Below, in pieces: positions 24,167 to 58,704 of a stretch of 64,000 nucleotides of DNA. Both the position numbers and the translations under genes were made by a program. Origin of the DNA: Balanoglossus misakiensis (taxonomy: Eukaryota; Animalia; Hemichordata); NCBI GenBank assembly GCA_040954595.2, contig CM082587.2, forward strand, positions 10,731,403-10,795,402. Reading direction: 5' to 3'. The notes under the pieces were generated by a model. That model had not been told where the DNA came from, ran no database searches, and saw nothing but the letters and a program-made list of their open reading frames with translations. Numbering within the stretch: the stretch's first letter is position 1; each line of letters starts with the position of its first letter.

Positions 24167-30101
<5,935 letters not shown>

Positions 30102-36267: not shown

Positions 36268-36772
36268 CTGCAGGTAATGAATATACAGTCATAAGCATTT
36301 GTTTTAAAAGATGTTATGTTTAATATGCTTTATTATTATGCATCTGGCACCAAGAACAATAGAATTTAGCGTGTACTAAAAAGCCATACGGAACGGTACG
36401 TACGGAACGCGTGTTAAATACGCCTTAAGTTTCAAGGCGCCCCAACTCACCGTGTACAGGTATGTACTGTTATGCGGACGGTTTCAAGACACCCCCACTC
36501 CAACGCACGTAAACAAAAAAGAAAGATGACTGCTCACTGTTTCAGCTGAGCAGTTTACGATCGATTGTATCGACAAAATTAAACATCGCATGGTTGTCAC
36601 ATTTGCATGAAAATATTCTCCCAATATGCATTTTTTCTTTGGATATGCAATCTGAAGAGCATGTGAGATAAAATGCTATGAAGTGAACAATTTGTTGAGT
36701 GTAATATTCTAGACTCCAGAAAGAGTCTACAAGATTTTCTGCAAGACTGAAAGAGACAGTTAGAGTACCCAC

Positions 36773-37008
36773 CGAATTATCCGATAGCGAGGTGAGACTT
36801 ATGGATAATGCGATATTGATTGTAACCAGACCAGCAAGAGGAACACATGCTCCTGATGGATCTTGAGACAGGAGTTGAGTTAAACCATTAACAAGTTGTG
36901 TTGTTATTTCTGTACCATAGTAGTTGCCACAGGATTGCTGGTCTGTAATCTGCCCACTACCATTATATGACACACTAAGCTGTGCACAGTAGTCAGGAAC
37001 GTCACGGT
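36773..37008 (-). CDS. Host exon: SEA-like module copy 1, part 1
   Basis: RDVPDYCAQLSVSY...SCGNYY...LTQLLS; phase-0 GTGGGT donor. Confidence 0.7.
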
Positions 37009-37431: not shown

Positions 37432-37533
37432 CTGGTAGTTGAGTTGGAGTTGGTAGGGTCGTAAGACCACCTGTTGTGGCTTTCAGAGTTGTTGCTGGTT
37501 TCGTAGTTGGTTTAGTACTGACATCATGATATA
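37432..37533 (-). CDS. Host exon: Thr/Pro linker
   Basis: 102 nt; HDVSTKPTTKPATTLKATTGG. Confidence 0.7.
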
Positions 37534-38043: not shown

Positions 38044-38654
38044 CTTTTGATGTTAACAGATCATCGGTGCCTCAGTTGTATGTTTTCTTGTTGTTCTTCT
38101 TTGGGAAGTGGCAGTATCATCAGTTATCATTTGTGTTTGCCATTCTGTGGTGCCTTCTACCGTTTGCCAATATTCTGTGGTGCCGTCCATTTTATTTGTT
38201 GTCAAAAGTGTCTCTGGTGTGGTGGCGTCCATTTTGTTTGTTGTCAACAATTTCTCTGGTGTGGTCCATGACTCTGTTGGCATCACATCACTTGCATCGT
38301 CATACTCTGAAGTCTGGTCTGCAGGAGTAATATCCACAGATTCTGCTGTTGACATCATTTCTGTTTTTGAGATCGGAGCAGATGTTGTCTTGTATGTACC
38401 CTCACCTTCTGTGCTTGACTGCTGATCAGGCTTTTCAGAACTTGCCTCTACTGTTGTCACGACAACAGGCATGGTTACTGTAACCATAGTAACTGTTGTG
38501 GTTGACTTGCTTTTTCCAGTTGTCACAGCCGGTATATTGTCTGTGTCCAACACAGTTGTCATTCTGGGCGAAGTTATGGCATATCCATCAGTTGAGATGC
38601 TTTTTTCTGTGCCTTCGGTGTAGGGACTAGTTAAATATTCCAGCGTTGTTTCAT
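38044..38654 (-). pseudogene. Host exon: Thr-rich mucin stalk, probable -1 frameshift near its 3' end
   Basis: 611 nt to a strong AAAG|GTGAAT donor; frame stops at TAA 38053-38055, 9 nt before it. A weak in-frame GTTAAC donor is an alternative. Confidence 0.6.
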
Positions 38655-39201: not shown

Positions 39202-39538
39202 CTTCAAGCGTACTCTCAATTGTTGTAACTATTCCAAAGTCTGGAAGTGTAGTAACTTCAAGCTCATCATCCTCACAATGTCGAAATTGCTTGGAGGTGT
39301 CAATAATCTCATCAAACTCAAAGTCTGTAACCCTGTAGTTAATTTTACCAGACACCGAATAGACCTTGACATTGAGAGGGGCTTGTATATCACCAGAACC
39401 AATGGGTTGTTCAAATAAGTTATCACTGAGTCTGTCTAGAGTAATCCAGGGACCAGTTGTGTGGACTTCCACAGTGGTGACAGGGTAACGATGATCCAAT
39501 ATTAATAAGCTGAATGATGCAGAAATGCTCTCTGCAAA
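39202..39538 (-). CDS. Expansin-like module 3, exon C
   Basis: 337 nt, intact. Confidence 0.85.
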
Positions 39539-40086
39539 CTAAATAAACAAATCAATCAATCAATATGCAGTACACTAAAAAGATGAACAACACAGTCCCT
39601 GGTTGGTCCTAATACTTTGAAATTTAGAGCAAGACTTACTGTAAAATGGGTTATTTTCGCGAGCATAAATTTTCGCAAAATACGCAAGATCTAAAAGAGA
39701 AGTGAAAATAAATGTCGTGTGATTTAACGATGCAGTTAGTGAAATACAAGAACGCCAAAATTAATCCTCGCGTAACAGTTGCCTCTTTTGATATTGCGAA
39801 AATTTCCTGGCGTGAAAATTTCCCGTTTTACAGTATTTGCAACAAATCATTGTCAATGACCTAGTCCCCACTGGATCTTCCCTTGTCCAAATCAGTTGAG
39901 ACTGGTTTGATTTCCAGGAGATCTAAACTTCCAGTAAAGAAACAGATGAATACTCTTGACAATTTAAACTTCAATCTTACAAATACTTAAAAAAATGGCT
40001 AGGGAGGTTTCAAACAAGTTTGCCAAGATGTGAAAATTAAAGACAAGGGTATATTAATTAGTTAATAATTGTTTTGTTTCACAAAC

Positions 40087-40305
40087 CTTGAACTTGATGG
40101 AGACATCTTCAGGACAGGCAATAACAGAGTAGGATACAAAAAGAGATGAAGGACTTTCACCATCTGACAAGATGTTGTAAGCATCCTCACTTAGAACCAG
40201 ACCATCTTCATCAATCATGCAGTACGGGTACATGCACATGTCTGTTACCCGGACAACTACAGATACATCATTTGAACCAATCACGTTCAGGCATTGCCCA
40301 CAAAC
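40087..40305 (-). CDS. Expansin-like module 3, exon B
   Basis: 219 nt; VCGQCLNV...VTDMC...ACPEDVSIKFK. Confidence 0.85.
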
Positions 40306-40581
40306 CTGCAATCACAGAAACCAAAATCTCCTTCTTTAGACAACACTGGAAGTACTAAAGCCAGCAGGGTTTCTTCAAATACAAAGCGATTATATCAATC
40401 TTAGCTGAGAAAATTAAAAAAACAGCGCAACACACAAAAACGAACAAGATGAAATAAAATTATTCATAACAAAAATTGTTACAAATCACAATGACTCGAA
40501 ATGACAGACCATCCGGTCAGTATTGACATCACAGCCAATCATGTACATAGTCTTTCAAGAACTAACGTTATCTATACTTAC

Positions 40582-40730
40582 ATGTGAATCTTGAAAATTG
40601 GCCATACCAGCAACCATACATGTACTTGTGTAAAATGTTCCAAATGAACAGGTACCATCAGTTGGTGTCTCACTGTACTTCTCACAAGTTGCATTTACAA
40701 AAGTCTCAAAGGTACCACATTCTCTACTGA
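40582..40730 (-). CDS. Expansin-like module 3, exon A
   Basis: 149 nt (6-nt in-frame insertion within a tacatgta motif). Confidence 0.8.
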
Positions 40731-41109
40731 CTGCAACAACAACATATGTTAACATATATTCAATCAATATGTAATCTTGGTTTCAATCAGAATCACACAA
40801 CTATAAAAAATAATTTATGCACAAAAATTGAGGGTGTAATGTTATATGTCATAAACGATACTGATTTTTGAAAAACAGGCGTATTTTTCTTCGCCTCCAA
40901 GGCTCCATGACTTGTACACTTCTGCTGAATTTCAGCCAAATAGTGTGCATTTGGACAGTTGCTGGCAATTGCAAACAATGTACAAGACTTTTTTTCATAA
41001 CGTCTGAAAGGTCCATTTTTGTATCTTTTAGCTATTTTTATTCTGAGTGGCAACCATTAGCTGCCCAAGATGAGTTTACATGTGTAGTCTTTATACGTAG
41101 TATAATTAC

Positions 41110-41721
41110 CTGTTGTTACATCATGAGAAGGTGTCACTGGTTTTGTTGTTGATATTTTAGTTGAAAGTGGTTCCGAAGATTTCGATTGAAATTCAGTGCG
41201 TTCGGTGGTCAGTTCTTGGACACTAGTTGTAGGCAGGGATGTACTTGTATCTACATCTGTTACTATTCTTGTTTTGGATTCTGTTGACCTGATTTCATAT
41301 TCTGTTGTCAAAGACTTTTGTGTGACTGGCTCAGCTGTTGTTGGGTTAGGCTTGATATCAGTAGTTGCTCTTTGAGCACTTGTTACATCTGTTGCAGTTG
41401 GGCCTATATCAGTTCTTGTTGCTGTTTCTGTGGTGTCTTCTTCATCTTCCATCGTTGAAAGTATCGTAGGATTGACGCTTGTTGTTGATAGAGTTGCAGT
41501 TGTGACAGTCTCGGATATTGCTGAGCTGACTTCATCCTGATCTGTGACTATAACATGGGTGGTCGAGTGGATACCAGTTGTGATCTCTTCAGATGAAACT
41601 GTTGTTCCACTTGTCACTTCAGTTCTTGTAGACCGACTGGTGAAGGAATCAGTCTCAGGCCCCCGGGTTGTAATGTACCCAGGCAATGTTGTTGGACCCT
41701 CCTGAGTAGATTGCATCTCGT
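41110..41721 (-). CDS. Host exon: Thr-rich mucin stalk
   Basis: 612 nt, open; paralog of 49664-50604. Confidence 0.8.
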
Positions 41722-42240
41722 CTGTTTTGGCAGGAAGGATACATGAAGAATAAGCGCTTCTGATTTCTCACAAACCATAGAATGTCCACTACTTGCATTT
41801 AATATACATTCATACCTACATTCATACCTACATTCATACATACATACATGCATGCATCCATGCATCCATCCATCCATACATACAAACATACTGTAAAACG
41901 GGTTATTTTCGCGAGCATTAAATTTTTCGTGAAATATGCGATAGCCAAAATACATGAAAATAATAAGTCACATAAAATATTTTTCAGAAATAACTATCCA
42001 GTAAAAATAAGAGATCATGAAAATTAATCCTCGCGAGACATTTGCCTCCATTGATATCATGAACAATTTCGTCACGAAAATGACCCGTTTAACAGTACAT
42101 ACATACAGATAGACAGACAGGCATACAGACATACAGACAGACAGACTACCTTGATCCCATAAGGTCCCATAGTATAGTATATATGTATACTGGTATATAC
42201 CAAATTGGACCTAAACTATGAAACTGAAACACAATCTTAC

Positions 42241-42544
42241 CTTCAAGCGTACTCTCGATTGTTGTAACTATTCCAAAGTCTGGAAGTGTAGTAACTTCAA
42301 GCTCATCATCCTCACAATGTCGAAATTGCTTGGAGGTGTCAATAATCTCACCAAACTGAAACTCTCTAACCCTGTAGTTAATTTTACCAGACACCGAATA
42401 GACCTTGACATTGAGAGGGGCTTGTATATCACCAGAACCAATGGGTGGTTCAAATAAGTTATCACTGAGTCTGTCTAGAGTAATCCAGGGACCAGTTGTG
42501 TGGACTTCCACAGTGGTGACAGGGTAACGATGATCCAATATTAA
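42241..42544 (-). pseudogene. Expansin-like module 2, exon C, 3' piece
   Basis: LILDHRYPV...TTIESTLEG|GTAAG. Confidence 0.85.
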
Positions 42545-43119
42545 CCCTAACGCTGTCGAGTCCGTAGCAGACCGCCCGATTTCCGGTGTGGGTAGAAGTC
42601 GAACGTTGGCGAGTGATGAATGACCTAATCGGTATGAATCGATATGATTCACCGACCCGCTGGAGTCTCTAGGCGTTTGCGTGCGCTTCGCTATAACGGG
42701 TTGTCTTTGAACTACCGTTTTGAGGGCAAAATCTGTTAGGACAGGAAAGTCTCGACAGGGTTATTTGCCTTGAACTACAAATAGCACACTATCCTTAGAG
42801 GCAAATTCCGCCGGTCATTCCGACCCTGGGGAGACCGTTTTTTATGTGTCCGCAAAAACGTAATTGACAGCGATGCATAGTTTTCCATAGCAGACGATTC
42901 CACAACGACATAGGGTATCAACCTTTTCGATGGCCAGACGTGTCGGACGCACTCGTGGGTGCCTGTTTAGGAGAGTGCGTTTTGGGATCGACTCGGGAAA
43001 ACATGACGATTTTTGCCGATGGTGCGAACCGATGACCGACGTCTTGGCGTGCGTGCGTCGCAGGCCATATCTTTCGCGACCGACTCGTAGCCTACAATTA
43101 CTCGTGAAAGAAAACTTGG

Positions 43120-43620
43120 TACGGACAGGCTTTGACGGGACTTGGCTTGCGTAGCCAGCGGCACAAGTGTGTAAAAACGACTGGGTGTGCATTTTGACGT
43201 AACGGCCGACGATGTAGACCGACTCGTCGTTTACACCCCGGTTCGCGACACATTGGATCGGACAGGTTTTGACGGGACTTGGCTTTGCGTAGCCAGCGGC
43301 ACGAGTGTGTAAAAAGCGACTGGGTGTGCATTTTGACGTAACGGCCGACGATGTAGACCGACTCGTCGTTTACACCCCGGTTCGCGACACATTGGATCGG
43401 ACAGGTTTTGACGGGACCTCGGCTTTGCGTAGCCAGCGGCACAAGTGTGTAAAAAGCGACTGGGTGTGCATTTTGACGTAACGGCCGACGATGTAGACCA
43501 ACTCGTCGTTTACACCCCGGTTCGCGACACATTGGATCGGACAGGTTTTGACGGGACTTGGCTTTGCGTAGCCAGCGGCACGAGTGTGTAAAAAGCGACT
43601 GGGTGTGCATTTTGACGTAA
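43120..43620. repeat. ~139-140-bp tandem repeat (~3.6 copies) in piggyBac 1 left subterminal region
   Basis: attttgacgt recurs at 43191, 43330, 43470, 43609. Confidence 0.9.
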
Positions 43621-44104
43621 ACAAAGCCGACGAATACGCTCTCGGTCCGGTGGGTTTTGCGTTACTCACCATTAGAGAACGACACAGTGTGCGGATGCCT
43701 GTAACTCAGGCTGGTGAATTGGACGGGTGTGTGCCGTAACGGTTCCTCGGTGCTGCGTGTTACCGAGGGGTATGTACAGACACGGGCGAAAGGCGTGCCT
43801 TGCATTCGCGTAACATAGGGGACATGAGTTCTGCTTAGGCCGCACAGATGCGAAATTTTAACGTCATGGTCGATCAATACTTTCTGTATTGTTACGCAAA
43901 TTGCCGTTCCAGATTTCCATTTCTGGCGGGAATTTTGAGGAGCCCCATAGGTCCGATTGCCTGCGGACATATTTTTGTGTCACGTGTTTGCGTACCTATA
44001 TATTAGGCGTCCAATTAGATGGGAGAACGCCTGTCACAGGTTCATGTGCGACTGCTAATAAAAGGGGTGTTTCGTGGACAGTTTTGTCAGTACCACTACA
44101 GACC

Positions 44105-46930
44105 ATGAGTTTGACGGACCGAAAGAGTTTTTTGAAGGCAACCCGAAAGATTCGGAACCCGGAATCCAGTGGAACGGGCAGCGATCGCTATGATGTAGAC
44201 TCCCCTGTTAGGAAGGGAAAGGCCAAGAAAAAGAAGGCAAAGAAACGCCTTTTGAGCGTCAGATTTGAGGAGACGGAGAAGCCTGGCGGGAAACGTAAGC
44301 GCAAGTCCAGTCGACCCGTTGTCGACTCGGCCGATGAGACAGAAGCTCCACCCCGGAGTGATGAGGTGACTGCGGAAGCGGGCGAACCAGCCAGTACCCC
44401 GACAGAAGCTCCACCCAGGAGTGACGAGGTGACTTCAGAGGCTGACTTACAATCCAGTAAGCAGCAGAAGTCTGGCGGGAAACGTAAGCGCAAGTCCGAT
44501 CGACCCGTTGTCGACTCGGCCGATGAGACAGAAGCTCCACCCCGGAGTGATGAGGTGACTGCGGAAGCGGGCGAACCAGCCAGTACCCCGACAGAAGCTC
44601 CACCCAGGAGTGACGAGGTGACTTCAGAGGCTGACTTACAATCCAGTAAGCAGCAGAAGTCTGGCGGGAAACGTAAGCGCAAGTCCGATCGACCCGTTGT
44701 CGACTCGGACGGTGAGACAGAAGCTCCACCCAGGAGTGATGAGGTGACTGCGAAGGCGGGCGAACCAGCCAGTACCCCGACAGAAGTTCCACGCGGGAGC
44801 GATCAGACGACCCCAGAGGCGGGCGAACCAGCCAGTTCCCCGCCAGTGACCCCATGTACGACAGATGATAGTCACGAGACCTCCCCAGAAGTGCCATCTG
44901 CTGCTCAGATGAGCCCTCATCAGGCAGTCGCCTCGACTTCCACTGGGAAGGTGGGATCATCCAAGAAAGCAGTAAAAAAAAAGGTGCGCTACAGTCCACC
45001 TGAGTTTGAGCCCGAAAAGATTTTGGACGCCAAAACAGGCTTGTTCCGATATAGACGGCCTGATGATGACCTTGAGGAGGATGAGGGAAACGTGACGGAC
45101 ATTGATGAGGATGCGGCAGAGGACGATAACTTTTACGAGCTGTCATTTCCTGGTACTCCATCTGAGGAGTCCGACTCCGAGAATGAAGCCGTAATAGAAG
45201 AGGCCATACGGCAGGCCTCCAAGGATGGGGACGAGTGGCGTCTTTCGCAGCATGAGGACACTGAGATATTTTCCGAACCCCTGTTCGAGAAAGAGCGTGG
45301 ACCCACGTTTACTATGGCAACACATGCACGGGAGTTGGAATACTTCCTGAAATTTGTATCACCGGACATGATATCTCTGGCGGTGAAGGAAACGAACAAA
45401 TATGCGTCGTATCACCAGCATTACATCGCAAAGAAAATCGACTCTGAGTGGCGAGCGACCAATTACAGAGAGATGCAAGCCTTCCTGGGCGCTGTCATCA
45501 TCATGGGCATTGACCGCAAGCCTGCTGTGGGCGACCATTGGTCCAGCGACATTTTCCTGCATAATGTTGGCATTTCGTCAGTCATGACCCGTCAACGCTA
45601 CCACAGGTTGATGCGGTATTTCCACTTGGCTGACCCCCAGAAGGATCCAAGACGAGACCCTGACCCGAACAGACGGTCACGCCGTTGTCAGGACGACCCA
45701 ATGTATAAAGTAAACCCATGGATGGAGCCCCTTGTAAACAGTTGCGTACACAGCTATCAGATGGGACAGGAAATCTCCATCGATGAAGGCATGGTGAAGT
45801 TCAAAGGACGTTCGAAATTCAAACAGAGGCTTCCCCACAAGCCAGACAGAGACGGATTTAAGGTATGGCAGTTGGCGGACTCTGTCACATCCTATGTGGC
45901 AAACTTTGCTCCCTACCTGGGGGTGAAGTACCTTGACAGGAATGACGGGAAAAAACAGGAGAGGGGAGTGGTGAAAAGAATAACGATTGAACTTGTTCAG
46001 CCGTTCTGCGGGTACAACCACATCCTCTTCTGTGACAGCCTCTTCACAACTGTGTTAACTGCGAGAGAACTGATGGAGATGGGCATGTATATGGTTGGAA
46101 GCTTCAACCGACGTAACCATCGGAGTATGCCGCCCATGCTTATTCCCCCCGGGAAAAAGAAGAAGCTTCCACTGAAGGTCGGTGAAATGAAGGCAGCCAC
46201 CCGAGTCGATTGCCGAATCAACCTGGCAGCTTATCAGGATAGCAATGCACAGGTGTTGATCCTGAACAACGTTTATCCACCAATTGACACGGAGACAGTT
46301 GGCAGTGGTGAGGAAGAGAGAAATGTGCCCCTGAGTTTGTCGAAGTACCGCGTCTTCATGGGAGGCGTTGACCGCGCTAACCAGAAGCGAAAATACTACC
46401 ACTGTGGGCGAAAGAACAACCGCTGGTGGGTATACATGGCCTGGTACCTGATGGATGTAGCATTGACGAATGCTTACGTATGTTTCAAAGACCTTAACCC
46501 CCAGACCAAGGTGAAGCACAAGTTCTTCAACCTACGTGTTGGGAAGCAACTCATTGGCGGATTCACCAGTCGTGGTCAAGGCAACGTACGGGAAATAGAG
46601 CGCACAGTTACTGACAGCTCTTTCATTTTCCCTGGAAACATACCCCAACACGTCGAAAGTAGATTACCTGGACGGCAGAAAACCTGCAAGCTATGCAGTA
46701 GGGAAGGCAAGAGGACCCTTTCTGGACGGCGTTCGGAGACTGTCATGGGATGTGCGCTCTGCCAAGTGCATTTGCATCAAGGCGAATGCTTCGCCTCGTT
46801 CCACCACCATATGATGCTACGAGGAAAGAAGAGCATCGGGACACAGTTTCCAGAAGGAGATGTGCGAGTTCGGCAGCCGAGACGGGACAAACCGCTCCGG
46901 CGAAGTTCCAGAAACACGGACCATTCCTAA
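44105..46930 (+). CDS. piggyBac transposase (PGBD4-like), 941 aa from first ATG
   Basis: ISIDEGM, LFCDSLF, MGGVDRANQ; RWW; C-terminal CKLC...CALCQVHLH...CFASFH; N-terminal 63-aa repeats. Confidence 0.93.
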   Translation: MSLTDRKSFLKATRKIRNPESSGTGSDRYDVDSPVRKGKAKKKKAKKRLLSVRFEETEKPGGKRKRKSSRPVVDSADETEAPPRSDEVTAEAGEPASTPTEAPPRSDEVTSEADLQSSKQQKSGGKRKRKSDRPVVDSADETEAPPRSDEVTAEAGEPASTPTEAPPRSDEVTSEADLQSSKQQKSGGKRKRKSDRPVVDSDGETEAPPRSDEVTAKAGEPASTPTEVPRGSDQTTPEAGEPASSPPVTPCTTDDSHETSPEVPSAAQMSPHQAVASTSTGKVGSSKKAVKKKVRYSPPEFEPEKILDAKTGLFRYRRPDDDLEEDEGNVTDIDEDAAEDDNFYELSFPGTPSEESDSENEAVIEEAIRQASKDGDEWRLSQHEDTEIFSEPLFEKERGPTFTMATHARELEYFLKFVSPDMISLAVKETNKYASYHQHYIAKKIDSEWRATNYREMQAFLGAVIIMGIDRKPAVGDHWSSDIFLHNVGISSVMTRQRYHRLMRYFHLADPQKDPRRDPDPNRRSRRCQDDPMYKVNPWMEPLVNSCVHSYQMGQEISIDEGMVKFKGRSKFKQRLPHKPDRDGFKVWQLADSVTSYVANFAPYLGVKYLDRNDGKKQERGVVKRITIELVQPFCGYNHILFCDSLFTTVLTARELMEMGMYMVGSFNRRNHRSMPPMLIPPGKKKKLPLKVGEMKAATRVDCRINLAAYQDSNAQVLILNNVYPPIDTETVGSGEEERNVPLSLSKYRVFMGGVDRANQKRKYYHCGRKNNRWWVYMAWYLMDVALTNAYVCFKDLNPQTKVKHKFFNLRVGKQLIGGFTSRGQGNVREIERTVTDSSFIFPGNIPQHVESRLPGRQKTCKLCSREGKRTLSGRRSETVMGCALCQVHLHQGECFASFHHHMMLRGKKSIGTQFPEGDVRVRQPRRDKPLRRSSRNTDHS
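44285..44840 (+). repeat. 189-bp (63-aa) coding tandem repeat in transposase N-terminus
   Basis: ggcgggaaacgtaagcgc at 44285, 44474, 44663. Confidence 0.9.
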
Positions 46931-46984
46931 ATTATTCCCCTCCCGAGAGGGTGACACGGGCTTCCGGTGAACCAGCCCTGGCAT

Positions 46985-47494
46985 TTGTGCGGACTTTAGT
47001 CATTTTTTTCTGTGGACCCCCACTAAATTATGCCCTTGAGTAGGGCTACGAGGTGACCGAGCCTCATTTACGGACAATGAAACACGGACTGTGAGAAACG
47101 GACAGGTTACTTGCGGACACTGAAACACGGATTGTGACATGGGCTCGTCTTGAACGAGCCCCGTTTGCGCGGACTTTAGTCATTTTTTTCTGTGGACCCC
47201 CACTAAATTATGCCCTTGAGTAGGGCTACGAGGTGACCGAGCCTCATTTACGGACAATGAAACACGGACTGTGAGAAACGGACAGGTTACTTGCGGACAC
47301 TGAAACACGGATTGTGACATGGGCTTGTCTTGAACGAGCCCCGTTGCGCGGACTTTAGTCATTTTTTTCTGTGGACCCCCACTAAATTATGCCCTTGAGT
47401 AGGGCTACGAGGTGACTGAGCCTCATTTACGGACAATGAAACACAGACTGTGAGAAACGGACAGGTTACTTGCAAACACTGAAACACGGATTGT
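46985..47494. repeat. ~180-bp tandem repeat (~2.8 copies) in piggyBac 1 right subterminal region
   Basis: gcggactttagtcattttttt at ~46989, 47169, 47348. Confidence 0.9.
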
Positions 47495-48310
47495 ATGATG
47501 TTACTGTAACGGTGCACGAATCACTCTTTTTTAGGAAATAAAGTGCTATTTATGAGGCAACCTGTGGTGGTGTTAATCCCTCTAATATGACGCACAGTAA
47601 CGGGGGTCTTGTGTAAATAGTCGTCCGGTTCGACACTCGCCCCTGGCCGAAATGGTGCAATGGGGCCTGCAGAACTTGCGGGTTACCTGTGACCGTGTCG
47701 GTACAACCCTGTACCATAAAAAACTATAGCGTATTAACACCGTAATGAACGTCTGTCTACTGTGCGTAACTAACCAACGTGTCGTTATCACAACGTCCGT
47801 GTGTGTCTTGTGTGCGAGAATGAGTCGTTGTCAGGCGGCTGTAGAGCGGAACACTGTGCGCCAGTGTCCAGTCGTTCGCATTACGTGTCGAACTAACTCG
47901 TACCCTACAGGAAAGTGGCAGGGGAAGGGGTGCCCGAACACCCCTGGCGGTACACCCTGGGTACCCTACTAATAACTGATGGTGTCGTTGTTGTGACGTG
48001 ATGTGGCGTGTACTAACACACTAACTTTATTTTCGTAAAAGTAAGCCTCGAAACGACGTTTACAGACGCTCCCCTCCCAGGGGAACGAACCCGATGACCC
48101 CACAACTTTTACCCGGTTAATTGTTGTTTGAGGTCCCGCCGACACGGGACTGTGCCAAACTTGAAGTCTAGCACGTTCAAAAGCAGCTAAAATGACCCTC
48201 CAAAAACCCAATTTTCAGGCAAAAAGCCTGGTAATCCAGCGGGTGTAGAGGCGGTCTCGTAACGAGTCGGCGGCCCAACGGGTTTTGACCCCCGGTAGCA
48301 AGAGGGTTAA

Positions 48311-48343
48311 TAAGCTGAATGATGCAGAAATGCTCTCTGCAAA
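48311..48343 (-). pseudogene. Expansin-like module 2, exon C, 5' piece (split by piggyBac 1)
   Basis: 33 nt plus 304 nt (42241-42544) = 337 nt, the length of the intact paralogs. Confidence 0.85.
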
Positions 48344-48665
48344 CTAAATAAACAAATCAATCAATCAATATGTGATACACTCACAAAATGAATGACACAT
48401 ACCAGGTTCACACAGAGAAAAATGTGAGACACTATTTGCCTATGATAAACTCAGAGCATTGTGTCCACACACACAAAGTTTGTGTATATGCGTTGAGGCT
48501 CGGCCCCATAGACAATCATGAGTTAAAAATACTGTTAAGAAGATGGCTTGTGAGGTTTCAAACAATTTTGCAGTGATGAGACAACTACAAGTGAATATTT
48601 ACTTTTAAGTAGCAATTTAAGACAAGGGTATCTAAATTAGTTAATACTTGTGTTGTTTCACAAAC

Positions 48666-48884
48666 CTTGAACTTGATAGAGACATCCTCAGGACAGGCAA
48701 CAACTGAGTAGGATACAAGAAGAGATGAAGGACTTTCACCATCTGACAAGATGTTGTAAGCATCCCCACTTAGAACCAGACCATCTTCATCAATCATGCA
48801 GTATGGGTACATGCACATGTCTGTTACCCGGACAACTACAGATGCATCATTTGAACCAATCACGTTCAGGCATTGCCCACAAAC
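48666..48884 (-). CDS. Expansin-like module 2, exon B
   Basis: 219 nt paralog of 54956-55174. Confidence 0.85.
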
Positions 48885-49180
48885 CTGCAATCACACATGA
48901 AGGTATTAAAATGCATGTATACTATTTCAACAAACCAACTAACTCCTTCTTTAGACAACACTGCAGGTTTTGGTTTAAGTGCTTAATCAAATTAAGCTGA
49001 GGAAATTTCAAAGAAAAACAGTGCAACACACAAACTTAGACAAACACGATGAAATAAAATTATTCATAACAAAAGTTGTTACAAATCACAATGACTCAAA
49101 ATGAGAGACTATCTGGTCAGTATTGACATCACAGCCAATCATGTACAAGGACTTTCAGAACTAACGTTATCTATACTTAC

Positions 49181-49323
49181 ATGTGAATCTTGAAAATTGG
49201 CCATACCAGCAACCATACTTGTGTAAAATGTTCCAAATGAACAGGTACCATCAGTTGGTGTCTCACGGTACTTCTCACAAGTTGCGTTTACAAAAGTCTC
49301 AAAGGTATCACAATCTTTACTGA
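49181..49323 (-). CDS. Expansin-like module 2, exon A
   Basis: 143 nt paralog of 55442-55584. Confidence 0.8.
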
Positions 49324-49663
49324 CTGCAAAAACAACAACACCAGTATTAAGATAAATTATTTAATATTCAATCAATATGTAATCTTGGGTTCAATCAAAA
49401 TCACACAACCATAAAACTTAATTTATGCACAAAAATTGATGGTTTCATGTTATATGTCATAAACAATACTGATTTTTGAAAAACAGGTGTATTTTTCTTC
49501 ACCTCCATGACTTGTATACTTCTGCTGAATTTCAGCCAAATAGTGTGCATTTGGACAGTTGCTGGCAATTGCAACCAACGTGTACAAGACCTTTTTCTTT
49601 GTGGCAACCATTAGCTGCCCAAGATGAGTTTACATGCGTAGTTTTTACAAGTAGTATAATTAC

Positions 49664-50604
49664 CTGTTGTTACATCATGAGAAGGTGTCACTGGTTTTGT
49701 TGTTGATATTTTAGTTGTTGAAAGTGGTTCTGAAGATTTCGATTGAAATTCAGTGCGTTCGGTGGTCAGTTCTTTGACACTAGTTGTAGGCAGGGATGTA
49801 CTTGTTTTGGATTCTGTTGACCTGATTTCATATTCTGTTGTCAAAGACTTTGTAACATCAGGTGTGACTGGCTCAGCTGTTGTAGGGTTAGGCTTGATGT
49901 CAGTTGTTCCTCTTTGAGCACTTTTGTTACATCTGTTGCAGTTGGGCCTATATCTGTTCTCTCTGTGGTTGTGTCTTCTTCATCTTCAACTGTTGAAAGT
50001 ATGGTTGGATTGACACTTGCAGACTCTGTTGTTGATATTTTAGATGAAAGTGGTTCTGAAGATTTCGATTGAAATTCGGTGCGTTTGGTGGTCAGTTCTT
50101 GGACACTAGTTGTAGGCAGGGATGTACTTGTATCTACATCTGTTACTATTCTTGTCTTTGATTCTGTTGACCTGATTTCATATTCTGTAACATCAGGCGT
50201 GACTTCAGGCTCGACTGTTGTTGGGTTAGGCTTGATATCAGTAGTTGCTCTTTCAGCACTTGTTACATCTGTTGCAGTTGGGCCTATATCAGTTCTTGAT
50301 GTTGTTTCTGTGGTTGTGTCTTCTTCATCTTCAACTGTTGAAAGTATGGTTGGATTGACGCTTGTTGTTGACAGAGTTGACGTTGTGAAAGTCTCAGATA
50401 TTGCTGAGCTGACTTCATCCTGATCTGTGACTATAACATGGGTGGTCGAGTGGAGACCAGTTGTGATCTCTTCAGATGAAACTGTTGTACCACTTGTCAC
50501 TTCAGTTCTTGTAGACCGACTGGTGAAGGAATCAGTCTCAGGCCCCCGGGTTGTAATGTACCCAGGCAATGTTGTTGGACCCTCCTGAGTAGATTGCATC
50601 TCAT
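49664..50604 (-). pseudogene. Host exon: mucin stalk with internal duplication and +2 frameshift
   Basis: 941 nt; gagcacttttgttac at ~49916-49930 versus gcacttgttac in the sister repeats. Confidence 0.75.
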
Positions 50605-50842
50605 CTGTTTTGGCAGAAATGAAACATGAAGAAAATAAGCAAATGCAAAAATTAATCCTCGCATAATAACAATTGCCTCCATTGATATCGCAAACAAATT
50701 TCCCATCACGAAAATAACCCGTTTTACAGTACATACATACAGACAGACTAAACTGATCCCATAAGGTCCCATGGTATAGTATACATGTATACTGGTATAT
50801 ACCAAACGGGACCTAAACTATGAAACTGAAACACAATCTTAC

Positions 50843-51179
50843 CTTCAAGCGTACTCTCGATTGTTGTAACTATTCCAAAGTCTGGAAGTGTAGTAACTTC
50901 AAGCTCATCATCCTCACAATGTTGAAATTGCTTGGAGGTGTCAATAATCCCACCAAAATGAAACTCTCTAACCCTGTAGTTAATTTTACCAGACACCGAA
51001 TAGACCTTGACATTGAGAGGGGCTTGTATATCACCAGAACCAATGGGTGGTTCAAATAAGTTATCACTGAGTCTGTCTAGAGTAATCCAGGGACCAGTTG
51101 TGTGGACTTCCACAGTGGTGACAGGGTAACGATGATCCAATATTAATAAGCTGAATGATGCAGAAATGCTCTCTGCAAA
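50843..51179 (-). CDS. Expansin-like module 1, exon C (CBM63-like domain 2)
   Basis: 337 nt; SFSLLILDHRYPVTTVEVHTTGPWITLDRLSDNLF...PLNVKVYSVSGK...SKQF. Confidence 0.85.
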
Positions 51180-51422
51180 CTAAATCAACAAATCAATCAA
51201 TCAAAATGTGGTACACTCAAAAAATGAATGACAGTCCCTAGTCGGTCATAATATTTTGAAATTAGAGCAACACATTATTGTCAATGTCCTAGTCCCCACT
51301 GGATCTGCCCTAGTCCAAATCAGTTGAGACTGGTTTGATTTCCAAGAGATCTAAACTTCCAGTAAAGAAACAGATGGACCACTCCTGACAATTTTAACTT
51401 CAATCTTACAAATACTATTTAA

Positions 51423-54400
51423 CCAGATATCTCCCAAATCGTAATCAGTATGAAGCTCTCATGGCTGCCCAGATCAGATCAAGTTGCAAGTTTTAATGAC
51501 CTGCCCAGGCACCGGTCATTCTAATTACTCAAATCTTAATTACTTGTAACCCGAAACTGGTGAAGCTGTTTGAATGCTTTCAAATACAGTTTAGGAGGTC
51601 AGTCTGTTGCTGCTGTTTTGCAAAGCTCTCAAGTATACTTCAGACGGGCAGAATTAAACTTGTAACATGGATTTTGGTGAGTACAAGTTTATGTATGACT
51701 GGTGATATACCTTCAGTCAACAAGCAGAACTGGCAAAATACAAAAGTTGGCTGTGATTGCTGACAAAACTGACCAGGGGTCAGATTACGATTCACTGCAT
51801 TACCAACAGTTCAGTGTCTGGCATTTCTCTGTGCTTTCTGTATATTTTGTCCAATGGGTGGACTAATGACAAGTGTTCTCCTATACTTGTCATTACAGAT
51901 AAAGTGGTGCATGATTACAGAATGTCCACACGAGAAATTGCCTCTTTACAAGTCACTGAAGAAGAAAGTGCTCTTCTTACAGGTGAATCAACTACACGGT
52001 CTGGGGCTGTGCGAAGACACGTGTACTTTAGGGAAGATGGGAGCATTACCCCTACTCCTCCAGACAGGGGTGACGAGCAAGGACAGGGAGAAGTAGTTTC
52101 TGGTGCCGAAGCCAGCACTACAGATGGTGAGATTCCCAGCAGATCTCACCAGGGAAATGAGTCTCCGATGGACATTTCCGACAACGAACAAGACATTTCG
52201 GCAAACAGATCTATGAGGGCTAGAAAGCGAATCAGGTATGAACAGTTGGATGACACTGAAAGTGAAGAATGGAGCAGTGATCCTGATTATGCCCCTTCTT
52301 CAGATCCTGATTCTGATATTGATACAACATCTGGTGACGAGGACGAATCTGCCGATGAAGGATTGACTGAAGGGGCACGTCGACGTGTTCGCAATGTACC
52401 CCTCACCAGAATAGAATCTACTTGGCGGGAGAGCGGTTACACGGAACCAACTCATCACGATGATGACGACAGTGACAGTGATGATAGCGATGACTGGTCC
52501 TATAGATTGAAGCCACACAACAATCTGCATGCCTTCACCGGCAGTCCTGGTGCCTCGGTAGATTTGGGAGATGAACCCACTCCCCTTAGTACGTTCCAGA
52601 AAATTTTCCCACCATCACTGGTAACAAAGCTGCGACAAGAAACCAACAGCTACGCCAGGTGGGTGAGACGGCAAACTGGTAAGGAGGACAGATTTTGGTC
52701 ACCAGTTGACAACGATGAGATGCAAGCCGTCATCGGTATATTGATATTGATGGGTGCAGATCCAAAACATGAAGTCGCTGACTACTGGTCGACAAATAGA
52801 TCACTCCGAAATGACTTCATTGCCAGTGTTATGAGCAGAAATCGGTTTCAGAAGATAATGCAGTATTTCCACTGCAATGACGCTGACCGAGACCCAGCTA
52901 ATATGGAGGTGGGTGAAGCACGAAGGAGGGCAAGACAGGCACAACCTATGTATAAGGTGGCACCAGTACTTGACGCTGTAATGGCAAACTCTCGTGAGTG
53001 CTATGGCCTGCATGAACAGATAGCCATCGATGAATCAATAGTGGCATACAAGGGACGATACAACGGTATTCCTACTGTATTCATCAAGGGAAAACCACAC
53101 GCGAAAGGCTTCAAAGTCTATACCCTTGCAGACAGTGTCACTAATTACATGGCAAATATGAAGTTCATGACAACAACTGGCAGTCATGAAAACGATATGC
53201 GTGATGTCTCAAGAACGACAGCCATCTGCGTAGACCTGGTACAGCATGTACAGGGACAGTATCACACCCTTTTTACGGACAGTTTCTACACAAGCATGCC
53301 ATTGGCGACAACACTGCTTGAGGAGTACCAGACATATCTGGTTGGCAGCATCCGGCAAGATAGAGTGGGTTTTCCTAATGCACTACGTACAAACCCCAAA
53401 AGGAACCCAAACAGTGCGCAGATAGCAGGGTTACAAAGGGGACAGTTTGTCACTCTGCAGAAGGGCAACTTGGTAGTGGTCGCATGGAAAGATTCGAGCC
53501 TGTTGTATTTAGTGACTAACTGTTATGAAGGCTATAGAACGGATGGCCAACGAGTGGTCCGATACGTAAAGTCGGCTGCATTACTGAGAAAGATTGCGTA
53601 CAGCCTGCCAGCGCCTGATGTGGTTTCCAAGTACAACCAGTACATGGGTGGTGTCGACAGAGCCAATCAGCTAAGATCGTACTATACATCTCAGCGACAA
53701 ACCCACAAATGGTGGAAGTACATTTTCTTCTTCCTGCTGGACACTGCGATATCAAATAGCTGGATAATCTACACCGAACTGGTTGATGAGCGGAAAAAGC
53801 ACAAGGCCTTCCAGGTCGATGTTGGCAATGCAATGGTTGGTGGCTTTACTTCCCGCAAACAAATGCTAACCAGCACGGCACCACCGATACACACATACAA
53901 GCATCACAGCTTGGTGAAAGGGGATGGCAGAGGTGCAAGCTGTAGAATGTGTATAAAGATGGGAAGGAAAACCCCGAGTGGCTGTTTTGTCACCACAGTG
54001 TTCCTGTGCAGCCAGTGCCGTATACACCTTTGCAAAGACTGCTTCCTACCCTACCATCACGTAGCCACAGGTAGTCCAAGTGTTGTGGCTGTTACCCAAA
54101 CAGAGGTGGATGACCTAAATGAGGCAATGAGACGGTGGACTATAGCACAACCTCGAGGCAGAGGAAGACCGTCTACAACCGGGACAGGGAGGCAGCAGCC
54201 TGTAGCCGCCGAGCCACATGCTGGACCCAGTGGACAACAGTCTGTGAATCGCACAGCAAGAAGGGGACGTGGTGCTTCCAGAGGAACTGCAAGATCGGTC
54301 GCCGCAGAAAGACAGCAGTCCATCAATGAAGCACAAGCTCCAACAAGAGGACGACCACCACTTCAAAGGGGAAGTCGCGGTGGACGGATGAGAAGAAATG

Positions 54401-54826
54401 GTCCCAAGGGGCGGGGGGCTACTTGAACGCAAACAAGTGTTAAATTTGGGCCCTGGGGCGGGGGGCTCTTTGTCGTTAGAGAAGTAAACTACTGGTATAA
54501 CACTTTCGTCTTGTGTCTTGCAGGATTAGTCGTGAAGTTGCACACAAGCAAACATACTGCCATATTTTGAGGTAGGCTAAACATGCTAGCCAACTCGGAA
54601 CTATTGGTAGTGCAGTGAATCGTAATAGGCCTGGGTCTGATGTACTTGCAAACTCAATAAGCCCAACTCTGAAGTACTTGCAACATGTTGACGGCCCAAG
54701 TCTGATTTACTCAGTCAAAAAAACCCTATGGGAAATCCATGACAGGTTGCAACAAATCCAGACTTGGTAGTTTAGAATGGCAAACCCATGGGAGCTTCCT
54801 ATGTATTACGGCTGGGAGAAAGAGGA
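51423..54826 (+). mobile_element. piggyBac element 2 (3.4 kb, intronic)
   Basis: TTAA at 51419-51422 and 54827-54830; imperfect ~42-bp TIRs (tctccca..cgtaat..gaagctc.catgg); empty site in the paralogous intron near 39987 (aaatacTTAAaaaaatggctag). Confidence 0.92.
51922..54426 (+). CDS. piggyBac transposase (PGBD4-like), 834 aa from first ATG
   Basis: DDD motifs IAIDES, LFTDSFY, MGGVDRANQ; KWWKYIFF; Cys-rich CRMC...CSQCRIHLCKDCFLPYH; Arg/Gly-rich tail. Confidence 0.93.
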   Translation: MSTREIASLQVTEEESALLTGESTTRSGAVRRHVYFREDGSITPTPPDRGDEQGQGEVVSGAEASTTDGEIPSRSHQGNESPMDISDNEQDISANRSMRARKRIRYEQLDDTESEEWSSDPDYAPSSDPDSDIDTTSGDEDESADEGLTEGARRRVRNVPLTRIESTWRESGYTEPTHHDDDDSDSDDSDDWSYRLKPHNNLHAFTGSPGASVDLGDEPTPLSTFQKIFPPSLVTKLRQETNSYARWVRRQTGKEDRFWSPVDNDEMQAVIGILILMGADPKHEVADYWSTNRSLRNDFIASVMSRNRFQKIMQYFHCNDADRDPANMEVGEARRRARQAQPMYKVAPVLDAVMANSRECYGLHEQIAIDESIVAYKGRYNGIPTVFIKGKPHAKGFKVYTLADSVTNYMANMKFMTTTGSHENDMRDVSRTTAICVDLVQHVQGQYHTLFTDSFYTSMPLATTLLEEYQTYLVGSIRQDRVGFPNALRTNPKRNPNSAQIAGLQRGQFVTLQKGNLVVVAWKDSSLLYLVTNCYEGYRTDGQRVVRYVKSAALLRKIAYSLPAPDVVSKYNQYMGGVDRANQLRSYYTSQRQTHKWWKYIFFFLLDTAISNSWIIYTELVDERKKHKAFQVDVGNAMVGGFTSRKQMLTSTAPPIHTYKHHSLVKGDGRGASCRMCIKMGRKTPSGCFVTTVFLCSQCRIHLCKDCFLPYHHVATGSPSVVAVTQTEVDDLNEAMRRWTIAQPRGRGRPSTTGTGRQQPVAAEPHAGPSGQQSVNRTARRGRGASRGTARSVAAERQQSINEAQAPTRGRPPLQRGSRGGRMRRNGPKGRGAT

Positions 54827-54955
54827 TTAAAATGTGGCTAGTGAGGTTTCAAACAATTTTGCAGTGATGTGACAACTACAGGAAATATTTACTTTTAAGT
54901 AGCAATTAAAGAAAAGGGTATCTAAATTAGTGAATAATTGTGTTGTTTCACAAAC

Positions 54956-55174
54956 CTTGAACTTGATAGAGACATCCTCAGGACAGGCAACAACTGAGTA
55001 GGATACAAGAAGAGATGAAGGACTTTCACCATCTGACAAGATGTTGTAAGCATCCTGACTTAGAACCAGACCATCTTCATCACTCATGCAGTACGGGTAC
55101 ATGCACATGTCTGTTACCCGGACAACTACAGATACATCATTTGAACCAATCACGTTCAGGCATTGCCCGCAAAC
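54956..55174 (-). CDS. Expansin-like module 1, exon B (DPBB core)
   Basis: 219 nt; VCGQCLNVIG...VVVRVTDMC...GLVLSQDAYNIL...VSYSVVACP. Confidence 0.85.
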
Positions 55175-55441
55175 CTGCAATTACACAAACCAAAAAACTC
55201 CTTTAGACAACACTGGAAAAACTACAGTATGCAGTTTTTTTCAAGTACATTTAGTGATTAAATCAATCTTGGGTGAGAAATTTAAAAAAATACAGTGCAA
55301 CACATAAAACAAGACAAAATAAAATCATTCATAACAATGTTACAAATCACAATGAGAAATTGGAGACAATCTGGTCAGTATTGACACTGGAGCAAAACAT
55401 TTACCGGTACATAGACTTTCAAGAACTAACTTTATACTTAC

Positions 55442-55584
55442 ATGTGAATCTTGAAAATTGGCCATACCAGCAACCATACTTGTGTAGAATGTTCCAAATG
55501 AACAGGTACCATCAGTTGGTGTCTCAATGTACTTCTCACAAGTTGCGTTTACAAAAGTCTCAAAGGTTCCACAATCTCTACTGA
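55442..55584 (-). CDS. Expansin-like module 1, exon A (DPBB N-part)
   Basis: 143 nt; SRDCGTFETFVNATCEKYIETPTDGTCSFGTFYTSMVAGMANFQDSH. Confidence 0.8.
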
Positions 55585-56284: not shown

Positions 56285-56443
56285 CTGTTGATACATCATG
56301 AGAAGGTGTCACTGGTTTTGTTGTTGATATTTTAGTTGAAAGTGGTGCACTAGTAGTTTCAGATGTTGTAAATTCTTTATCTGAATCTGTCGTTGGTTTT
56401 CTTTCAGTCACAGTGATTGCCTGCGTTGATGGCGCCTCATAAC
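56285..56443 (-). CDS. Host exon: Thr/Ser-rich linker
   Basis: 159 nt; ends KISTTKPVTPSHDVSTG, as do the duplicated mucin exons. Confidence 0.75.
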
Positions 56444-57044: not shown

Positions 57045-57344
57045 CTGTTGCATCTCTTGTTTGAGCATCAGTGTGTACTCTTGCCGTCGTGGTTACCAAA
57101 TCATCTGTGTGTACTTTTGTCGCCGTGGTTGCCACATCATCTGTGTGTACTTTTGCCGTTGTGGTTACCATGCCATCTGTCTGTGCTCTCTTGGTGGTTC
57201 TCATAACATCTGTGTCTGCAGCTGCTGTGGAGATTTTCATCCGCAATGTGGTCACTTCTTCCTCTTCTGTTGCCGCTCTATCAGTTCCATCCATTTCTGT
57301 CGTCCCAAGCTCTGCAGTTGACATGTCTGTGACCGTTTCCGTTT
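57045..57344 (-). CDS. Host exon: Thr-rich mucin-like stalk
   Basis: 300 nt, phase 1-1; repeated VHTDD..TT.T units; acceptor position less certain. Confidence 0.7.
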
Positions 57345-57553: not shown

Positions 57554-57733
57554 CAGTAGTTGTAGTAGAAGGTGTTGTTGGCAACACAGTCACAACATCT
57601 CCTTCACACATCAAAGGGTTTGGATGGCTTGGTGTGAATCCATAGTCACAACTGAATGACACTATAGAACCAATGTCGAAATCATTGCCATGTCTCTGAC
57701 CGTTGACTGGTGTACCAGGATCTTGACATTCTC
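57554..57733 (-). CDS. Host exon: N-terminal part of a CCP domain running into a Thr-rich linker
   Basis: 180 nt; ECQDPGTPVNGQR...VSFSCDYGF...LMCEGDVVTVLPTTPSTTTT; no terminal W or Cys4. Confidence 0.85.
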
Positions 57734-58149
57734 CTGAGGTCAAGAAGCAAAGTATCTTATCAATATTAAATCATCAACTCAGACAGAAGTCATTCCTTAC
57801 AAAAACATTCTATATACATCATTCTACAGAATTCATTAGCCTTTTGAATTTCTATATAAGTTTAAATAATTTCTATGGACATCTATATATTTGTATGTAG
57901 TTTTCGAAGTTGCTTAAAATGTTTTTCGGAAATAACGATGCAGTGAAATACAAGAAAGTGAAAAAGTAGTAGTCGCAGTGTAACAGTCGCCTTTTTTGAT
58001 ATTGCGAAAATGTCTGGCCCAAAAATTCCCCATTTTACACTGTATTCAAACAACACATTGTGTGTGAATGTCATGAATTTCATCAGAGTATAACTATTAT
58101 CAAACAGAAGTGATTGCTTCTCTGAAAGAAATATTCTTTTCTACGTTAC

Positions 58150-58330
58150 CCTGAGCAACACATCTTGGTCTGGTGCCATTCCATGTTCCATCTTCAGTGC
58201 AATATCTCCTGGTGTTACCAAGTGCTTCATATGCCATGTTACACTGGAGTGTAGCAACACTATCATACCAAGTGCCATCACTATTCCCATGAGCCATCTT
58301 CAATCGCAGTCAACAAACCACAGTCAACAC
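58150..58330 (-). pseudogene. Host exon: CCP domain with +1 frameshift
   Basis: 181 nt. VDCGLLTAIEDGSWE runs into TAG; the domain (NSDGTWYDS...CTEDGTWNGTRPRC) continues in another frame. One extra base in the CCC run at 58286-58288. Confidence 0.75.
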
Positions 58331-58434
58331 CTAGAAATAATAATAGTGAGTTCTTATATAGCGCACATATTTTCTTTGAAGTATTGAAGCCTGTTTCTAT
58401 TGAATTCTATAGAAATGATAGAATCTATAGAATG

Positions 58435-58638: not shown

Positions 58639-58704
58639 AATCTATAGAATGCAAAAGAATTCTAAGGAATATAAGGTATAGCATTATTCATTCCTGTTAC
58701 TTAC

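Follow-up and report, generated by a model that had tools for sequence, protein, structure and literature searches.

Expansin-type modules within a split sushi domain of an Uninflatable-like gene of the hemichordate Balanoglossus misakiensis

Microbial expansins occur fused to other domains, among them CBM1, CBM2, CBM32 and GH5 (10.1101/637728) as well as chitin-binding, dockerin and discoidin domains (PMC5072189). Animal expansin-like genes in Oikopleura and in bivalves have been flagged as possible contamination, and the same survey did not settle if the small number of animal expansin genes is genuine or due to contamination (10.1101/637728); in its published row, Exaiptasia is listed with barwin-like, chitin-binding and pollen-allergen domains (PMC6626399). 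Uninflatable (Uif) of Drosophila is described as a large type-I membrane protein with a CLECT domain, three CUB, eight CCP, two FA58C and three HYR domains and an EGF array (PMC3340373), and has been termed a conserved insect protein (PMC13178913). Here we analyze a stretch of 64,000 nucleotides from the hemichordate Balanoglossus misakiensis (GCA_040954595.2, contig CM082587.2, positions 10,731,403 to 10,795,402; hereafter the window), in which three copies of an expansin-type module lie in an Uninflatable-like membrane protein gene, inside one sushi (CCP) domain.

Expansin homology of the module exons

The modules lie on the minus strand and span 55,584 to 39,202 as three copies of a three-exon unit, each coding for a DPBB-like domain followed by a CBM63-like domain; in the order of transcription they are modules A, B and C. 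In all three units the exons are bounded by AG/GT splice sites, with phases 1|0|0|1. The module peptides quoted in the original prediction, which had been made from the letters of the window, are present, as are its three-exon units, their phase-1 borders and the Thr-rich stalks that flank them (Ser+Thr 31-42% in the five Thr-rich exons measured).

55442..55584, minus strand: module A exon 1, first part of DPBB-like domain 1 (splice sites; alignment)
54956..55174, minus strand: module A exon 2, remainder of domain 1 plus linker (DPBB_1 E 0.0023, sub-threshold)
50843..51179, minus strand: module A exon 3, CBM63-like domain 2 (94% identical to C exon 3)
49181..49323, minus strand: module B exon 1 (splice sites)
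48666..48884, minus strand: module B exon 2 (DPBB_1 E 0.00096, sub-threshold)
48307..48343, minus strand: module B exon 3, 5' piece, with TTAA at its end
42241..42544, minus strand: module B exon 3, 3' piece, opening with the duplicated TTAA
40582..40730, minus strand: module C exon 1 (splice sites)
40087..40305, minus strand: module C exon 2 (DPBB_1 E 0.0024; best PDB match 7wvr EXLX1, E 0.4)
39202..39538, minus strand: module C exon 3, CBM63-like domain 2 (best PDB match B. subtilis YoaJ, E 0.0067)

The three copies are 94-97% identical in protein and acidic (pI 4.3-4.4). Between them we counted 15-22 coding substitutions, and their first introns diverge by 10-15%. On these small counts, synonymous divergence (0.02-0.05) is lower than intron-1 divergence (0.10-0.15), a hint of exon-focused conversion.

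Single exons gave little in Pfam: exon 2 matched DPBB_1 at E 0.001-0.002 in 3/3 copies, below the Pfam cut-off, and exons 1 and 3 (copies A and C) matched nothing at E<=1, Expansin_C included. Upon splicing, module C scored 53.0 bits and module A 48.8 bits against a bacterial EXLX profile (115 loci from a motif scan, of which those yielding >170 residues were used), compared with 4.2 bits for the best of 1000 shuffles and -1.7 bits for reversed C. When the motif used to collect the loci was masked, spliced C scored 27.8 bits. Scored separately, domain 1 reached 14.5 bits and domain 2 27.4 bits. The closest bacterial relative in that set is a myxobacterial EXLX (L072), 34% identical over 169 residues; alignments that placed exon 1 on the bacterial scaffold were misaligned. 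Against a profile from 155 non-hemichordate expansin domains the window modules reach 109-114 bits, a score that is not fully independent, as these domains were picked with a profile that held the window exons.

Out of 1.84 billion representatives, a profile of exons 2 and 3 on the bacterial scaffold matched 1,660 proteins at E<=0.001, the best 150 of which were listed. The top match, with three module matches of its own, is Saccoglossus kowalevskii XP_077862127.1 (LOC100378937), a protein of 4,825 amino acids annotated as 'uncharacterized', and among the matches listed it is followed by free-standing tandem expansins of Ptychodera and Saccoglossus. A word-based homolog search with exons 3 and 2 among proteins of up to 2,000 amino acids (70 and 42 candidates) found none, the Saccoglossus ortholog being longer than that limit, and tblastn against phages and plasmids gave no useful match.

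We modeled the third Saccoglossus module from a 107-row alignment (pLDDT 84.8, pTM 0.82). In a Foldseek search with this model, expansins fill ranks 1-12 (E 2e-12 to 2e-8). Among 48,161 chains, the expansins reach Z-scores of 21.4, 21.1 and 21.1 with rmsd of 2.3-2.7 Å over 188-194 residues; the closest is 7wvr (Z 21.4, rmsd 2.3 Å over 188 residues), and the next non-expansin has Z 11.3. The aligned residues extend over both domains, with domain 2 directly after domain 1 on a short linker, which is the EXLX layout. In the whole ortholog protein, DPBB_1 is recognized at 31 bits (cut-off 28.8). Because the fold alignment was made of expansin homologues, the model confirms compatibility with the expansin fold and is not a discovery of it. 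Together with the profile scores of the spliced modules, it bears out the expansin-type two-domain homology that the original prediction had proposed.

A cassette inside one sushi domain

The host is a many-exon gene on the minus strand, running from beyond the right end of the window to about 11,170. Its domain order, read by Pfam from 45 translated stretches, surrounds the modules as follows.

58148..63210, minus strand: upstream host exons, three CCP, two EGF-Ca and three CCP; the gene runs past the window end (Pfam; colinear with XP_077862127.1 644-1128)
57554..57733, minus strand: N-terminal part of a sushi/CCP domain (Cys1, Cys2, Cys3) leading into a Thr-rich tail (Pfam Sushi 1-46 of 56; 1-44 at 26.5 bits)
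57045..57344, minus strand: Thr-rich stalk exon, phase 1-1
56285..56443, minus strand: Thr-rich stalk exon, phase 1-1
37432..37533, minus strand: short Thr/Pro-rich exon, phase 1-1
36006..37008, minus strand: Cys-bounded domain in two exons, 37008-36773 and 36267-36006 (no useful Pfam match; 39-49% identity to XP_077862127.1 2809-2964)
35438..35536, minus strand: exon with RKRR (furin-type motif), then the C-terminal sushi strand (W...P.C, Cys4) (also in both Saccoglossus models)
11172..34758, minus strand: downstream host exons (Pfam; colinear with XP_077862127.1 2999-4798)

The downstream exons code for HYR, CCP-like and Cys-bounded domains, three GCC2/ephrin-receptor-like repeats, an EGF array and a LamG/pentraxin domain, followed by HYR, CCP-like and RRKR domains, four GCC2 repeats, EGF, a hydrophobic transmembrane exon (at about 11796-11701) and a cytoplasmic tail with NPMY. 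The Cys-bounded domain among them (32267-33588, minus strand, after the HYR/CCP-like exons) is about 150 residues long, matches no Pfam family and is a paralog of the one listed above; in the ortholog, the two match each other at E 2e-8. The basic cleavage-type motif RRKR (15781-16083, minus strand) is the second of its kind in the gene and is kept in the Saccoglossus protein at residue 4334.

Upon close examination of the exons on either side of the modules, we noticed that they code for complementary parts of a single sushi domain. Scored with a profile built from the six other CCP exons of the window, the two halves reach 27.0 bits when joined, and 12.7 and 7.5 bits separately. The terminal motif W-x4-P-x-C occurs six times in the six frames: four occurrences end CCP exons, one lies on the opposite strand, and one, at 35465, is the detached C-terminal strand. 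With a sushi half on each side, the cassette of stalks and modules is located inside one domain, after Cys3 and ahead of the last strand with Trp and Cys4; in both species its end is marked by RKRR. The insert is 1,150 residues long on the path through modules A and C and 1,820 residues long in Saccoglossus. Sushi domains form disulfides between cysteines 1 and 3 and between cysteines 2 and 4, and RKRR fits the furin consensus.

The Saccoglossus protein has the same architecture. Its domains comprise three CUB, sushi, EGF, HYR, ephrin-receptor-like, LamG/pentraxin and DPBB_1 domains and a transmembrane segment, and, one exon after another, residues 644 to 4,798 are colinear with the window, at mostly 40-65% identity per exon. 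The split sushi domain, the Thr-rich stalks, the Cys-bounded domain and RKRR are all shared. The modules of the two species are 41-48% identical; in Saccoglossus all three are open in the model, and the stalks are much longer. The search for Uninflatable-like proteins with expansin domains in other invertebrates, which had been suggested as a check, thus returned one with three modules at the same place. When region 2535-3120 of this protein was compared with 1,341 candidates of 2,653-8,444 amino acids, which is weak evidence of how widely the fusion occurs, the matches were limited to the two Saccoglossus models and an unrelated HYR protein. The second of these models (P0155) is an older version of the same gene, 3,097 residues long and identical except that residues 1270-2965, that is all three modules, are absent; it retains the split sushi domain, a Thr-rich linker and RKRR and is without the first Cys-bounded domain.

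The host therefore has the layout of three CUB domains, CCP, HYR, EGF, LamG and a single transmembrane segment, the CUB part, which lies beyond the window, being taken from the ortholog. At the start of the Saccoglossus protein we recognize by eye C-type lectin-like and LDLa-like domains that Pfam does not list at E<=0.001. F5/8 type C (FA58C) gave no match in XP_077862127.1 (E<=0.001) or in P0155 (E<=0.1).

The original prediction spoke of three complete modules. Modules A and C are intact; the middle copy, B, is disrupted twice, by a piggyBac-type element in its third exon and by a frameshift in the Thr-rich exon ahead of it.

51419..54826 (approx.), plus strand: second piggyBac-type element, TTAA-flanked, within intron 2 of module A (ORF 51757-54423, PF13843 E 9.4e-75)
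49664..50604, minus strand: Thr-rich exon ahead of module B, 941 nt, internally duplicated (+2 frameshift near 49924, stop at codon 253)
42545..48306, plus strand: piggyBac-type element, 5,762 bp, inside module B exon 3 (ends CCCT...AGGG; transposase ORF 43862-46927)
41110..41721, minus strand: Thr-rich exon ahead of module C, 612 nt, phase 1-1, intact
38044..38654, minus strand: Thr-rich exon that follows module C (in the assembly, the distal donor is out of frame by one missing base; in-frame internal donor 38406)

The element in module B starts 37 bases into exon 3, is flanked by TTAA copies at 48310-48307 and 42544-42541, and carries an intact 1,022-codon frame that matches DDE_Tnp_1_7 (PF13843) at E 5.2e-66. 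Its inverted ends are imperfect and it contains internal tandem repeats, traits that we take to be those of Pokey-type elements. Both insertions have the TTAA target duplication and a DDE_Tnp_1_7 transposase, and their ends, examined for terminal inverted repeats, are only imperfectly complementary. Without the element, module B reads 696 nt free of stops, which indicates that the insertion struck a previously intact module. For the element in module A, a joint omitting exactly 3408 bases occurs in sequencing runs X1 and X2, as fits an empty site. Run X2 also contains further insertion flanks of the module B element, as well as extra TTAA tetramers at 49666 and 55631 (intronic, near modules), possibly traces of other TTAA-targeting elements. 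No indel near 49924 is listed in runs X1-X4, though their cover at that base is not displayed. At 38063, runs X1 and X4 have one extra base, which makes the exon after module C 612 nt long and stop-free. Contigs of the four runs (two samples, two studies, one of them maybe the source of the assembly) cover the module and flanking exons.

An exon path through the Thr-rich exon of module B meets a stop at codon 366 of 473. By contrast, a path of 17 exons with AG/GT borders, built from splice signals rather than from a transcript, leads from the N-terminal sushi half at 57,733 via A and C to the HYR and CCP-like exons, as far as 34,056, over 1,349 stop-free codons; behind module C it takes the in-frame donor within the Thr-rich exon, at 38,406. 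Exon 3 opens in phase 0 and closes in phase 1, which rules out omitting it from B by itself but allows unit B to be omitted as a whole. We therefore place the modules, as originally predicted, within the CCP/EGF/HYR/LamG membrane protein gene and not in a nested one, on the grounds of this stop-free path, the flanking sushi halves and the same fusion in the ortholog model.

Replaced working residues and possible roles of the modules

In B. subtilis EXLX1 (BsEXLX1), Asp82 is required for wall extension and loosening and is hydrogen-bonded by Thr12; Thr14, Asp71 and Tyr73 contribute, W125, W126 and Y157 bind cellohexaose, and domain 1 in isolation is described as not binding cellulose (PMC5072189). 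We compared these positions across the six fused modules, three from each species. Position 82 is valine in all six, compared with aspartate in 140/155 other domains, and position 12 is glutamate in all six, compared with none of the 142 other domains that have a residue there. Asp71, in the V.D.C motif, is kept in 6/6. Five fused modules have none of the three platform aromatics and the sixth has one, compared with all three in 122/155 other domains and at least two in 148. Among free-standing hemichordate proteins, the C-terminal repeats keep all three aromatics and have Asp or Asn at position 82; their N-terminal repeats and a single-pass Saccoglossus protein (P0025, see below) are partly or wholly degenerate. 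Despite the limited identity between the species, 63 aligned positions are invariant across the six fused modules, including some that are rare in other expansins (among them E16, Y33, Q53, V86, N178 and Y190 in module C numbering). No register that we tried restores Thr at position 12 or two tryptophans, and an alternative register yields at most 1/3 aromatics.

With Asp82, Thr12 and the aromatic platform replaced, binding or loosening of cellulose is unlikely, and since all three defining residue tests failed we do not class the modules as working expansins. Of the polysaccharide-binding array that had been predicted, the array stands, and the polysaccharide binding is weakened by replacements that run through all six modules. 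We favor, with moderate confidence, the reading that an Uninflatable-like gene carries a cassette of Thr-rich stalks, expansin modules and RKRR in one sushi domain, and that the modules serve as non-catalytic binding domains and not as cellulose looseners. Its architectural part is far more secure than its functional part.

The arrangement suggests how such a protein might work. From this allele, a working transcript would leave out unit B, joining A exon 3 to the Thr-rich exon of C (phase 1 to phase 1), and would thus carry two modules. As the sequence of the halves suggests, the sushi domain may fold with the cassette looping out, and stalks that are probably O-glycosylated would hold the modules off the apical membrane, in the mucus layer. 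A putative furin-type cut at RKRR would leave the module-bearing N-terminal part held by the Cys2-Cys4 disulfide of the sushi domain, and hence releasable. The ligand site could be a remodeled face of domain 1, formed by the retained Asp71, the new glutamate in place of Thr12 and a conserved tyrosine in the next loop; the most likely ligand would be a protein, or a glycan other than cellulose, from the surface coat of the animal itself.

Several observations weigh against this reading. The older Saccoglossus model is without the cassette, such that the cassette may be skipped or one of the two models is wrong. Both Saccoglossus proteins are gene models, and the fusion in the window is read from splice signals. 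The folded model is that of the ortholog, built on expansin homologues and hence not independent, and its pLDDT is 53-76 over residues 1-40. The register that places Glu at position 12 comes from a sequence alignment in a poorly conserved stretch, and an alignment of bacterial rows only gives Lys there; one register puts Phe at Trp126. Some natural expansins without Asp82 (a Leu82 variant) keep an electronegative site (PMC5072189). Among the window copies pN/pS is 0.5-1.0 on few changes, with no sign of selection after the triplication.

Could the modules instead still bind or remodel insoluble polysaccharide (algal, bacterial or detrital), the acid having moved from position 82 to the neighboring position 12 and the aromatics to a different patch? 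The whole two-domain fold is kept, and so is Asp71; the new glutamate occupies, in all six modules, the very position whose threonine hydrogen-bonds Asp82 in BsEXLX1. Expansin-related proteins vary in their catalytic centers (PMC12846793), and the natural Asp82-to-Leu variant retains its electronegative site (PMC5072189). Drosophila Uif moreover has two putative carbohydrate-binding FA58C domains that are missing from the Pfam matches of the Saccoglossus protein; functionally, the modules might stand in for them. By contrast, the cellulose platform of domain 2 is gone (0-1 of 3 aromatics), BsEXLX1 domain 1 in isolation is without cellulose binding, and the modules are acidic, and we regard this explanation as rather unlikely.

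We also find it unlikely that the modules are structural spacers, or a rarely included and dispensable cassette, which would make a mucin-like loop longer and stiffer and bind nothing specific. This would agree with a middle copy that tolerates two lesions, with the older Saccoglossus model, with the loss of all functional residues and with the pN/pS values. It accords poorly with modules kept at one site in two lineages between which orthologous domains are about 40-65% identical, and with the 63 invariant positions, several of which other expansins seldom share.

A more elaborate proposal, which we consider quite doubtful, is that a microbial-type expansin became the sensing arm of an Uninflatable-like receptor. 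Here the paired change of Thr12 to Glu and Asp82 to Val would have reshaped the site of binding or catalysis to suit a new glycan (of food algae, bacteria or the animal's own mucus), the loop in the split sushi domain would be made releasable by the furin cut and the disulfide, and its inclusion might be switched by splicing.

Were the module exons a gene of their own, lying within a long intron of the receptor gene, this would account for the older model, in which the flanks are joined without the modules, and hemichordates do have free-standing expansin genes. Yet no start codon or signal peptide exon is seen at the units, their phase-1 borders resemble those of every flanking exon, they lie on the same strand in a stop-free path, and the newer Saccoglossus model is fused, all of which renders a nested gene very improbable. 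An assembly artefact or microbial contamination, to which the likely indel error or allele at 38063 and a near-perfect 2,373-bp triplication elsewhere in the window might point, is hardly credible, given spliceosomal introns within each module, copies that differ in both exons and introns, contigs of four runs across the module and flanking exons, and an independent ortholog.

The fused modules amount to a natural experiment, an expansin fold minus the known working residues and with one new acid conserved, and their size suits testing as a single recombinant domain of 210 residues. Likewise, the split sushi domain with its cleavage motif is a separate feature in its own right, an insertion socket of 1,150-1,820 residues.

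Origin of the modules and comparison with known systems

In phylogenetic trees the six fused modules form one group, with support of 97/94 in a tree of 60 rows and 100/99 in one of 56 rows. The first tree drew 60 of 167 domains, with cnidarian, bivalve and tunicate expansins left out, and 30 of the 150 listed matches were identified by name. Within the group the modules split by species, window with window and Saccoglossus with Saccoglossus; this indicates that the triplets arose separately or were homogenised. The sister of the group is P0025 (Saccoglossus XP_006812521.1), on a long branch (100/92, 60-row tree); after four long rows were dropped, the sister is a metagenomic protein of odd composition (96/90, 56-row tree). 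In terms of sequence identity, the N-terminal repeats of tandem hemichordate proteins come closest to the window modules (34-35%). A single hemichordate origin is not rejected (p-AU 0.54), and identities between free-standing hemichordate domains and non-animal ones reach 45-47%. Because intron-split modules stand in a receptor gene at the same site in two species, we conclude that expansin genes are genuine in this lineage and were probably recruited by exon shuffling. The module probably derives from the hemichordate's own expansin family via phase-1 exon shuffling and would have been multiplied or homogenised in each lineage. The horizontal origin raised in the original prediction is rejected as a claim and retained as a possibility, the deep branches being unstable between trees and no donor nameable.

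Two free-standing Saccoglossus proteins deserve description. P0025 is a single-pass membrane protein whose Thr-rich stalk carries two degenerate expansin-like modules, and it has no Pfam match at E<=0.001; judged by its sequence, it is a candidate donor or sister of the fused modules. P0152 (APU50764.1) is a tandem two-module protein with a signal peptide and a hydrophobic C-terminal tail that suggests a lipid anchor. All three aromatics are retained in its second module, and its best feature match is an all-eukaryote cluster, possibly its own, whose commonest phylum is Hemichordata.

The window holds further repeats and mobile elements. At 455-7574, the 2,373-bp unit is repeated three times at >99.8% identity, either a young duplication or an assembly artefact; fragments of this stretch look by eye like decayed reverse transcriptase, four stretches being without a Pfam match. 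An intron of the receptor gene contains a 544-codon ORF (17079-18710, minus strand) that matches DUF3504 (E 1e-26) and phage integrase (E 4e-7) and is presumably a Crypton-like tyrosine-recombinase element. Short dispersed or palindromic repeats resembling MITEs (miniature inverted-repeat elements) occur in many introns, e.g. at 15281-15492, 26898-27115, 39637-39838, 62688-62903 and 32898-33164.

In the full-text literature covered, which leaves out most subscription journals, we found no description of the fusion, in keeping with the original prediction; it is already implicit in the RefSeq model of the Saccoglossus gene. The main text and two supplementary files of Simakov et al. 2015 (PMC4729200) contain 0 occurrences of expansin, yoaj and uninflatable, and the passages concerned in PMC6006793 and PMC10855680 are unrelated to such a fusion.

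With microbial EXLX proteins (B. subtilis EXLX1/YoaJ, 2bh0 and 3d30; Streptomyces Ss_EXLX1, 9ms5; Talaromyces EXLX1, 7wvr; Clavibacter, 4jcw) the fused modules share the order of a DPBB domain followed by a CBM63-like domain, the motifs CG.C..V.G, V.D.C, L.LS..A[FY], H.YPV, W..L.R...N.F and QF, and, in the ortholog model, TM-scores of 0.74-0.81. Unlike them, the fused modules contain introns, are repeated, form part of a protein of >4,000 residues, and have Asp82, Thr12 and the aromatic platform replaced. The free-standing animal expansins (Saccoglossus APU50764.1, 'expansin-yoaj protein-like protein 170', XP_006812919.2 and XP_006812521.1; Ptychodera XP_070533744.1; Exaiptasia 'Expansin-YoaJ') are likewise built of two-domain modules, often in tandem. 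By contrast, they are proteins of 430-670 amino acids, secreted, tail-anchored or single-pass, and without CCP/EGF arrays. With Drosophila Uif the host shares three CUB domains, CCP, HYR and an EGF array, and is 'Uif-like' by this domain content, not by a tree. Uif has two FA58C domains and, in its published list, no expansin domain, whereas the hemichordate protein carries the cassette.

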